From the NCBI RefSeq assembly GCF_030384885.1, contig NZ_CP128613.1: DNA of 64,000 nucleotides; one strand, 5' to 3'. Positions 17,791 to 20,591 of this stretch are shown here, in pieces. Each line of letters begins with the position of its first letter. Position 1 is the stretch's first letter. Source of the DNA: Escherichia coli (GTDB lineage Bacteria > Pseudomonadota > Gammaproteobacteria > Enterobacterales > Enterobacteriaceae). The notes beneath the pieces were generated by a model. The model was not told the origin of the DNA. It did no database searches and worked only from the letters and a program-made list of their open reading frames with translations. Both the position numbers and the translations under genes were made by a program.

Positions 17791-17879
17791 TCAGCTTTTT
17801 TAATCCCATACTTTTCCACAGGTAGATCCCAACGCGTTCACAGCGTACAATACGCCACTCTTAATAAAGGTGGCGGTTT

Positions 17880-18323
17880 ATGGCAGATATCACTCTTATC
17901 AGCGGCAGCACCCTCGGCGGTGCCGAATATGTGGCAGAACACCTGGCTGAAAAGCTGGAAGAGGCGGGTTTTACCACCGAAACGCTGCACGGTCCGCTGT
18001 TGGAAGATTTATCTGCCTCGGGGATCTGGCTGGTTATCAGCTCAACCCACGGTGCCGGAGATATTCCGGACAACCTTTCTCCTTTCTATGAAGCATTGCA
18101 GGAACAGAAGCCCGATCTTTCTGCGGTCTGCTTTGGCGCTATCGGTATTGGCAGTCGTGAATATGACACCTTTTGTGGGGCTATCGATAAACTCGAGGCA
18201 GAACTCAAAAATTCCGGTGCAAAACAGACAGGCGAAACACTGAAGCTCAACATCCTTGATCACGACATTCCGGAAGATCCGGCAGAAGAATGGCTGGGAT
18301 CGTGGATTAATTTACTCAAATAA
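17880..18323 (+). CDS. mioC: FMN-binding flavodoxin-like protein MioC
   Basis: 147 aa, immediately adjacent to oriC. Confidence 0.96.
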   Translation: MADITLISGSTLGGAEYVAEHLAEKLEEAGFTTETLHGPLLEDLSASGIWLVISSTHGAGDIPDNLSPFYEALQEQKPDLSAVCFGAIGIGSREYDTFCGAIDKLEAELKNSGAKQTGETLKLNILDHDIPEDPAEEWLGSWINLLK

Positions 18324-18336
18324 GTATACAGATCGT

Positions 18337-18618
18337 GCGATCTGTTGTGGGTAACTCTGTCAGGAAGCTTGGATCAACCGGTAGTTATCCAAAGAACAAC
18401 CGTTGTTCAGTTTTTGAGTTGTGTATAACCCCTCATTCTGATCCCAGCTTATACGGTCCAGGATCACCGATCATTCACAGTTAATGATCCTTTCCAGGTT
18501 GTTGATCTTAAACGCCGGATCCTTGTTATCCACAGGGAAGTGCGATCCTAATAAGAGATCACAATAGAACAGATCTCTAAATAAATAGATCTTCTTTTTA
18601 ATACTCAGGATCCCAGGT
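18337..18618. other. oriC: chromosomal replication origin oriC (DnaA boxes, GATC cluster, AT-rich 13-mer unwinding element)
   Basis: TTATCCACA at 18526-18534, TGTGTATAA at 18421-18429, TTATCCAAA at 18385-18393, a variant box TGTGGGTAA at 18346-18354, many GATC sites, and 13-mers GATCTATTTATTT / GATCTCTTATTAG near 18545-18600. Confidence 0.9.
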
Positions 18619-18701: not shown

Positions 18702-20591
18702 ATGTTTTATCCGGATCCTTTTGACGTCATCATCATTGGCGGGGGTCATGCAGGCACCGAGGCCGCGATGGCCGCGGCGCGTATGGGTCAACAGACTCTG
18801 CTTTTGACACACAATATCGACACTCTGGGGCAGATGAGCTGCAACCCGGCGATCGGCGGTATTGGGAAGGGACATCTGGTAAAAGAAGTGGATGCACTCG
18901 GCGGCCTGATGGCTAAAGCGATCGATCAGGCTGGTATCCAGTTTAGGATACTAAACGCAAGCAAGGGACCGGCAGTTCGCGCTACCCGAGCTCAGGCGGA
19001 TCGTGTGCTCTACCGTCAGGCGGTACGTACGGCGCTGGAGAACCAACCGAACCTGATGATCTTCCAGCAGGCGGTTGAAGATCTTATTGTCGAAAACGAT
19101 CGCGTGGTCGGTGCTGTTACCCAAATGGGACTGAAGTTCCGTGCCAAAGCCGTCGTGCTCACCGTTGGGACGTTCCTCGACGGTAAAATTCATATCGGTC
19201 TGGATAACTACAGCGGTGGCCGTGCTGGTGATCCGCCGTCCATTCCGCTCTCTCGCCGTTTGCGTGAACTGCCGCTGCGCGTTGGTCGTCTGAAAACCGG
19301 GACACCGCCGCGTATTGATGCTCGAACCATCGACTTTAGCGTGCTGGCGCAACAGCATGGCGATAACCCAATGCCGGTATTCTCGTTTATGGGCAATGCG
19401 TCCCAGCATCCACAGCAGGTGCCGTGTTATATCACCCATACCAACGAGAAAACCCATGACGTGATCCGCAGTAACCTCGATCGCAGCCCAATGTACGCAG
19501 GGGTAATCGAAGGTGTTGGCCCACGCTACTGTCCGTCGATCGAAGACAAAGTCATGCGCTTCGCCGACAGAAATCAGCATCAGATCTTCCTTGAACCGGA
19601 AGGGCTGACCTCTAACGAAATTTATCCGAACGGTATCTCCACCAGCCTGCCGTTCGATGTGCAGATGCAAATCGTCCGCTCCATGCAGGGGATGGAAAAC
19701 GCGAAGATCGTGCGTCCGGGTTATGCCATTGAGTATGACTTCTTCGATCCACGCGACCTGAAACCGACGCTGGAGAGCAAGTTTATCCAGGGGCTGTTCT
19801 TTGCTGGTCAGATTAACGGCACTACCGGTTACGAAGAAGCCGCTGCGCAAGGTTTGCTGGCCGGTCTTAACGCTGCCCGTCTGTCTGCTGACAAAGAAGG
19901 TTGGGCTCCGGCGCGTTCTCAGGCGTATCTCGGCGTACTGGTTGATGACCTGTGCACTTTAGGAACCAAAGAACCGTATCGTATGTTTACCTCGCGCGCA
20001 GAATATCGTCTGATGCTGCGCGAAGATAATGCAGATCTGCGTTTGACTGAAATCGGTCGTGAACTGGGCCTGGTGGATGACGAACGTTGGGCGCGCTTTA
20101 ACGAGAAACTTGAGAATATCGAGCGTGAGCGTCAGCGTCTGAAATCGACCTGGGTAACCCCGTCGGCGGAAGCTGCAGCCGAAGTGAATGCTCACCTGAC
20201 TGCGCCACTTTCCCGTGAAGCCAGTGGTGAAGATCTGCTGCGTCGTCCGGAAATGACTTATGAAAAATTAACCATGCTGACGCCTTTTGCCCCTGCGTTG
20301 ACAGACGAACAGGCGGCGGAACAGGTTGAGATTCAGGTTAAATACGAAGGTTATATTGCGCGCCAGCAAGATGAGATCGAAAAGCAGCAGCGTAACGAGA
20401 ATACCTTGCTGCCAGCGACGCTGGATTACCGCCAGGTATCCGGTCTTTCTAACGAAGTGATCGCCAAACTTAACGATCACAAACCGGCTTCTATCGGTCA
20501 GGCTTCGCGTATTTCTGGCGTCACGCCTGCTGCCATCTCCATTCTACTGGTGTGGCTAAAAAAACAGGGTATGCTGCGTCGTAGCGCATAA
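18702..20591 (+). CDS. mnmG: tRNA uridine 5-carboxymethylaminomethyl modification enzyme MnmG (GidA)
   Basis: 629 aa, FAD-binding [10 protein letters not shown] motif. Confidence 0.97.

Follow-up and report, generated by a model that had tools for sequence, protein, structure and literature searches.

The window analysed here, by which we mean the whole 64,000-nt stretch of Escherichia coli DNA, contains an ordinary E. coli oriC situated between mioC and mnmG (gidA) (Table 1), at the place homologous to the annotated oriC of E. coli MG1655 (NC_000913.3, positions 3925744–3925975), which is likewise flanked by these two genes. The two origins share the order and spacing of R1, R5M, I1, I2, R2, R3, I3, C1 and R4, as well as the 13-mers of the duplex unwinding element (DUE), the AT-cluster and 11 GATC sites. 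In the window, C1, I3, R3, R2, I2, R5M, I1, R1, the 13-mers, the AT-cluster and all 11 GATC sites are intact, with the GATC sites running from 18372 to 18588 and forming the complement of a minimal oriC, which in its E. coli type is marked by a high GATC density with 11 such sites. The box order, orientation and spacing are those of an enterobacterial oriC, with R4 located 74 bp from R2 and 180 bp from R1, and the offsets of R4, R2 and R1 were kept in 79–80 of the species representatives described below. R4 is located 22 bp past the stop codon of mioC and 350 bp ahead of the start of mnmG. The names of the low-affinity sites are those that we take from the K-12 literature, the sites adjoining R4 presumably being C1 and, beyond it, I3; their sequences match MG1655 in the alignment. 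Over the whole window, TTATCCACA was matched 26 times when up to one mismatch was allowed, where shuffles led one to expect 13.9 matches and none of 100 shuffles reached 26, an excess which fits the origin-proximal enrichment of DnaA boxes.

Table 1. Coordinates of the oriC elements and neighbouring features in the 64,000-nt window
Feature	Coordinates	Strand	Sequence and remarks
DnaA box of the mioC promoter	17812..17820	+	TTTTCCACA, intact
mioC	17880..18323	+	transcribed toward oriC
R4-flanking polymorphism	18344..18345	.	GT here, AC in K-12 (alignment)
oriC DnaA box R4, variant	18346..18354	-	TTACCCACA (canonical TTATCCACA); plus strand TGTGGGTAA
Low-affinity DnaA site C1 (name presumed)	18358..18366	-	TTCCTGACA, same as MG1655
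Low-affinity DnaA-ATP site I3 (name presumed)	18369..18377	-	TTGATCCAA, same as MG1655
R3	18385..18393	+	TTATCCAAA, same as MG1655
R2	18420..18428	-	TTATACACA, same as MG1655
R1	18526..18534	+	perfect TTATCCACA, exact match
Duplex unwinding element (DUE)	18548..18591	-	13-mers match K-12 exactly
13-mer R	18548..18560	-	exact K-12 sequence
13-mer M	18563..18575	-	exact K-12 sequence
13-mer L	18579..18591	-	exact K-12 sequence
AT-cluster	18592..18603	-	TATTAAAAAGAA, adjoining DUE, intact
mnmG (gidA)	18702..20591	+	other flank of oriC

R4 has a G at plus-strand position 18351 in place of the canonical A, which corresponds to a change from T to C at position 4 of the box; a mismatch scan of the window recovered R4 as a one-mismatch match to TTATCCACA. 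The stringent R-box consensus is TTWTNCACA (Schaper and Messer 1995, in the wording given by PMC4585315 and PMC5835720), and the remaining eight positions of R4 fit it, whereas the T required at position 4 is absent from TTACCCACA. By its sequence this R4 is not a consensus R box, but it may still function in an R-box-like manner. The sequence-only reading of this DNA had described the deviation at position 4 of R4 next to a perfect R1, had taken both boxes to be perfect in K-12, and had suspected that the flanking bases differ from K-12 as well. The alignment with MG1655 bore out all of this: the homologous 9-mer in MG1655 is TGTGGATAA and thus not identical to that of the window, R1 matches TTATCCACA exactly, and the two bases next to R4 are polymorphic. 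In total, 333 of 341 bases are identical between the two origins, with R4 being TTATCCACA in MG1655 and TTACCCACA in the window, and the seven further SNPs are located in spacers and flanks and are common to the lineage of the window. The GT flank occurs together with a canonical R4 in seven complete genomes, including 2013C-4282 and EC42405. A perfect 8-nt inverted repeat, ACAGATCG/CGATCTGT, adjoins R4 at 18328–18345, with a 2-nt loop and two GATC sites, and it is the lineage-specific GT flank which extends this repeat from 6 to 8 nt. Two mutational hot spots were considered for the R4 change and rejected: a quasi-palindrome or template-switch hot spot, as the mutated base lies outside any inverted repeat and only ACAGATCG/CGATCTGT is nearby, and a cytosine-deamination hot spot, as the change is T-to-C (A-to-G) rather than C-to-T and is without a Dcm site.

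High-affinity DnaA sites have a Kd of roughly 4–20 nM and are occupied throughout the cell cycle. R4 and R1 are described as perfect consensus sites which bind DnaA in its ATP as well as its ADP form at nanomolar Kd, in agreement with the high affinity ascribed to R4 in the sequence-only reading, while low-affinity sites are unable to bind DnaA alone and are filled by donation from their neighbours, with R4 passing DnaA on to C1 across a spacing of 3 bp (PMC6727663). The same review describes base-specific hydrogen bonds between DnaA and positions 2, 3, 4, 7, 8 and 9 of TGTGGATAA, with the thymidines at positions 1 and 6 engaged in van der Waals contacts only (PMC6727663); the mutated pair of R4 is position 6 in the TGTGGATAA orientation. 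Any deviation from TTATNCACA lowers the affinity according to one review (PMC5043019). Initiation at the chromosomal oriC survives the loss or the inversion of R4 and the loss of the whole right half, as stated in PMC4585315 (citing Weigel 2001), which gives as the cost of those alleles asynchrony, with slow growth for R3, R4 or right-half deletions, and reports that mutant origins are outcompeted by wild-type origins. The Right-DnaA subcomplex is built on the sites from C3 to R4; it has a supportive role by aiding L-DUE unwinding and DnaB loading, and the AT-cluster stands in for it when it is absent (PMC9198467). Engineered chromosomal R4 mutants, made by deletion, scrambling, inversion or TmaDnaA-box replacement, perturb the same Right-DnaA anchor (Weigel 2001, via PMC4585315; PMC9198467), but those alleles abolish or re-target binding, whereas the window has a single natural transition at a position where the contact is of the van der Waals type only. 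Full-text literature searches yielded no binding or replication-timing data for TTACCCACA, with hits for the 9-mer almost all being unrelated primers; the 9-mer is listed, by sequence only, as a putative DnaA box type in the oriC of Bifidobacterium longum. The sequence-only reading had also proposed an effect on mioC read-through, which we do not uphold, as the analysis turned up no link between R4 and such control and the DnaA box of the mioC promoter, TTTTCCACA, is intact.

The age of the change was assessed by comparison with the nearest relative, strain 2013C-4282 (NZ_CP027579.1). Across the 64 kb this strain is 99.967% identical to the window, from which it differs by 20 mismatches and one indel, and a 20-kb part of the window aligned to it at ~100% and in register. 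Within the 341-bp oriC segment the two differ only at the R4 base. When strains MFDS1022581 and EC42405 were included, the alleles at 2708, 18246, 18351, 26603, 30492 and 30975 were private to the window, and those at 972, 36960 and 42134 were private to 2013C-4282. The G at 18351 is absent from all three relatives and was thus derived on the window's own branch, and judged against these relatives the R4 change is a very recent SNP, private to the lineage of the window. Among the 4,309 complete E. coli genomes that gave a match, none had the exact 60-mer of the window. Five of the six window-private SNPs are transitions, and two of the four in coding sequence are synonymous, these being located at 30975 (glmU) and 26603 (atpG); the SNP at 30492 in glmU is non-synonymous (M180I). 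The A-to-C change at 18246, located 105 bp from the R4 SNP, is also private, gives MioC I123L and abolishes the GATC site at 18245–18248 in the oriC-proximal end of mioC. Ten of the 20 mismatches to 2013C-4282 fall within the 37 bp of a variable region in the 16S rRNA gene (1491–1527), a cluster which looks like rrn-copy heterogeneity or gene conversion rather than point divergence. At 36960, the window has one G more than 2013C-4282, whose lpfC-O113 carries a frameshift annotation; the other two relatives, MFDS1022581 and EC42405, side with the window, which restores the lpfC frame, and the lpfC-O113 usher gene is probably intact in the window. Artificial alteration of the window was ruled out, as its differences from 2013C-4282 look natural, with rrn heterogeneity and scattered SNPs on both branches.

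The base at 18351 is called in one assembly of the window's strain, for which no second assembly was found, and the same goes for the call underlying MioC I123L, 105 bp away, the exact protein sequence of which had no record in the gene-position collection. Both being private to the window, a sequencing or assembly error is conceivable, in which case the strain would truly have a canonical R4 and the G at 18351 would be false. We consider such an error highly improbable: the differences from the nearest relative are scattered and have the share of transitions and synonymous changes given above, the agreement with the relatives at the lpfC indel makes the window look like a better assembly than that of 2013C-4282, and the identical substitution was confirmed in independent assemblies of other strains.

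The first of these other strains is known from the literature. In a comparison of 59 E. coli genomes by Frimodt-Møller et al. 2015, R1, R2 and R5 were invariant and R4 was deviant in one genome, with the R4 of the enteropathogenic E. coli (EPEC) O127:H6 strain E2348/69 having a dT-to-dC change at position 4 (PMC4585315). The window has this dT-to-dC at position 4 of R4 and an otherwise intact oriC. Its R4 substitution is identical to that of E2348/69 and is an already known polymorphism. The two origins belong to different lineages, with a left flank of CCAC in E2348/69 versus CTGT in the window and 8 differences in 341 bp, and this difference in haplotype indicates that the substitution arose in E2348/69 independently of the window.

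A single-base change is not testable against chance in the usual sense, and a comparative test was used. The query was a 36-mer made up of the variant box plus right-flank sequence, for which an exact full-length match was required in BLAST searches of complete E. coli genomes; the focal change and three controls were surveyed in this way over 5,426 genomes. With the flank of the window, five exact records were obtained, four of which are assemblies of EPEC O127:H6 E2348/69 and one is strain A27, and a 36-mer with the ST131-type right flank added one further carrier, GN02323. The survey of R4 across E. coli genomes that the sequence-only reading had called for thus gave 6 carriers in ~5,420 complete genomes (~0.1%), representing three lineages besides the window, where ~217 genomes carry other 36-mer haplotypes in which the differing base was not located (1,104 genomes in the 90–95% band minus ~887 in which the ST131-type flank goes with a canonical R4). 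The carriers were obtained from human stool (the EPEC strain E2348/69), tapir faeces (A27) and human blood (GN02323). The window, E2348/69, A27 and GN02323 have four different oriC haplotypes. The window has 1 difference from its nearest canonical oriC (2013C-4282), A27 has 2 from MG1655 and GN02323 has 2 from an ST131 genome, while none of the other oriC sequences compared came closer than 3 differences to the haplotype of E2348/69. Four haplotypes, three of them within two bases of a canonical oriC, imply at least four independent origins of the change in E. coli. As a class, and as judged from the several independent assemblies that carry it, the variant is real in nature and no sequencing artefact. 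The control substitutions, R4 TTGTCCACA, R4 TTATTCACA and R1 TTACCCACA, were each searched on one flank haplotype, common to ~4,310 genomes for the R4 controls and to ~4,755 for the R1 control, and none was matched exactly over its full length in complete E. coli genomes. Scans of metagenomes found 0 contigs with the variant, with only 3 contigs containing the E. coli R4 region, too few to bear on its frequency.

The comparison was extended to 80 species representatives of the Enterobacteriaceae, of which the mioC-oriC junctions were fetched via MioC, and the offset of R4 did not vary among them. The plus-strand sequence was TGTGGATAA (box TTATCCACA) in 67/80 representatives, TGTGTATAA (box TTATACACA, differing at the free position 5) in 6/80, and TGTGGGTAA (box TTACCCACA), the same variant as in the window, in 5/80, with TGGGGATAA (box TTATCCCCA) and AGTGGATAA (box TTATCCACT) found once each. 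The five carriers of the variant fall into two clades, one with Citrobacter sp. R56 and Citrobacter sp. Awk 4, and the other with Pseudescherichia vulneris, Escherichia sp. ESNIH1 and the metagenome-assembled genome (MAG) UBA7338. In P. vulneris NBRC 102420, ESNIH1, R56 and Awk 4, R4 is TGTGGGTAA and lies as far from the mioC stop codon as it does in the window, and R1 is canonical, 180 bp off; in these four the variant is the species-representative state, whereas it is strain-private in the window, and the spacers differ widely. R1 was canonical in about 76/79 representatives and was TTATCAACA in one and TTACCCACA in two, namely Enterobacter soli ATCC BAA-2102 and UBA7338, in each case 180 bp after R4, so that UBA7338 has TTACCCACA at R1 as well as R4. 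R2 varied at position 5 alone. In R4, changes at position 4, each of them to C, are about as frequent as those at the free position 5 (5 versus 6 of 80), and no other deviation from the consensus is as common in the anchor boxes as T4-to-C, with 4 of ~7 independent events among species. A contig titled Chryseobacterium sp. 18061 contained an enterobacterial mioC-oriC region near-identical to that of Citrobacter sp. 18056, and this assembly is probably mislabelled or contaminated.

The distribution among species bears on how much the substitution matters for DnaA binding. Its presence at R4 as the species-representative state of two clades and at R1 of two species, the occurrence of TTACCCACA at both boxes of one MAG, and the report of a van der Waals contact alone at the mutated position would fit complete neutrality, with TTACCCACA binding DnaA like the canonical box and the consensus being too strict at position 4. 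Such neutrality predicts an appreciable frequency of the variant, or deep E. coli clades carrying it, whereas it was seen at ~0.1% in single strains and lineages; furthermore, the R1 variant was present in none of the ~4,755 genomes with the main flank, and the T is conserved in 75/80 species at R4 and in about 76/79 at R1. We therefore regard complete neutrality as unlikely. At the other extreme, R4 may be effectively inactive, giving a strain that resembles an R4-null, with asynchronous initiation and poor multi-fork growth, in which the left half of oriC and the AT-cluster suffice. The T at position 4 is within the stringent consensus, sites of low affinity cannot bind DnaA alone (PMC6727663), chromosomes without R4 are viable, and the AT-cluster backup is intact in the window, but the slow growth and lost competition of a null allele are hard to square with the presence of the variant in whole species groups and in R1 of Enterobacter soli, which makes an inactive R4 quite improbable.

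The recurrence of the change could also reflect adaptive tuning, where a weaker R4 is selected in some backgrounds and adjusts initiation timing or initiation mass, or compensates for changes in DnaA supply. This would agree with the at least four independent origins on different E. coli haplotypes, together with four events among species, and with the absence of the three control substitutions. The least harmful transition is, however, also expected to recur under mutation and weak purifying selection, and neither an obvious common ecology of the carriers (human stool EPEC, tapir faeces and human blood) nor a co-varying change in oriC itself was seen; we consider selection for a weaker R4 very unlikely.

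The best explanation, in which our confidence is evenly balanced, is that a recent and private A-to-G change at 18351, rare in E. coli and recurrent, makes R4 TTACCCACA, from which we infer an R4 that is weaker but occupied, with a mild phenotype or none. In its usual role R4 anchors the right-half DnaA oligomer, which extends from R4 via C1, I3 and C2 to C3. A change of T4 to C keeps a pyrimidine but loses the contact with the thymine methyl group, leaving the hydrogen-bonded positions unaffected, and R4 would then bind DnaA somewhat less tightly while still being filled with the help of cooperative DnaA-DnaA contacts and R2. The right-half complex only assists unwinding and helicase loading, and the phenotype expected from this is either absent or limited to slightly late or asynchronous initiation in fast growth. 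The effect on the R4 anchor is likely to be a modest weakening, with at most a subtle change in initiation timing. The recurrence on four E. coli haplotypes and in two other enterobacterial clades argues that the change is tolerated and not seriously disruptive, and from the genomes compared here R4 T4-to-C is evidently a rare, recurrent and tolerated polymorphism. Against such a mild effect, T4 is fixed in TTWTNCACA and, in combination with the lowered affinity stated for any deviation (PMC5043019), this means that the loss of affinity could be larger; the frequency of ~0.1% and the shallow E. coli branches fit mild purifying selection, but also fit a stronger cost.

For the strain itself the practical significance is small, its origin being normal apart from a one-base polymorphism known from a different E. 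coli strain. Of modest value is the comparative pattern, with at least four origins in E. coli, at least four among 80 enterobacterial species and the absence of the three controls from complete E. coli genomes, which suggests that, for C specifically, position 4 of the DnaA box is under weaker constraint than the textbook consensus would have it. It is conceivable, although we think it improbable rather than probable by a wide measure, that T4-to-C is the preferred natural way of weakening the anchor boxes, R4 and sometimes R1, and that it recurs or becomes fixed by retuning DnaA occupancy and initiation timing; if this were true, TTACCCACA would be a functional class of DnaA box left out by TTWTNCACA. 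The origins of E2348/69, A27, GN02323 and Pseudescherichia, and R1 of Enterobacter soli, provide natural alleles for tests of anchor affinity and initiation timing.
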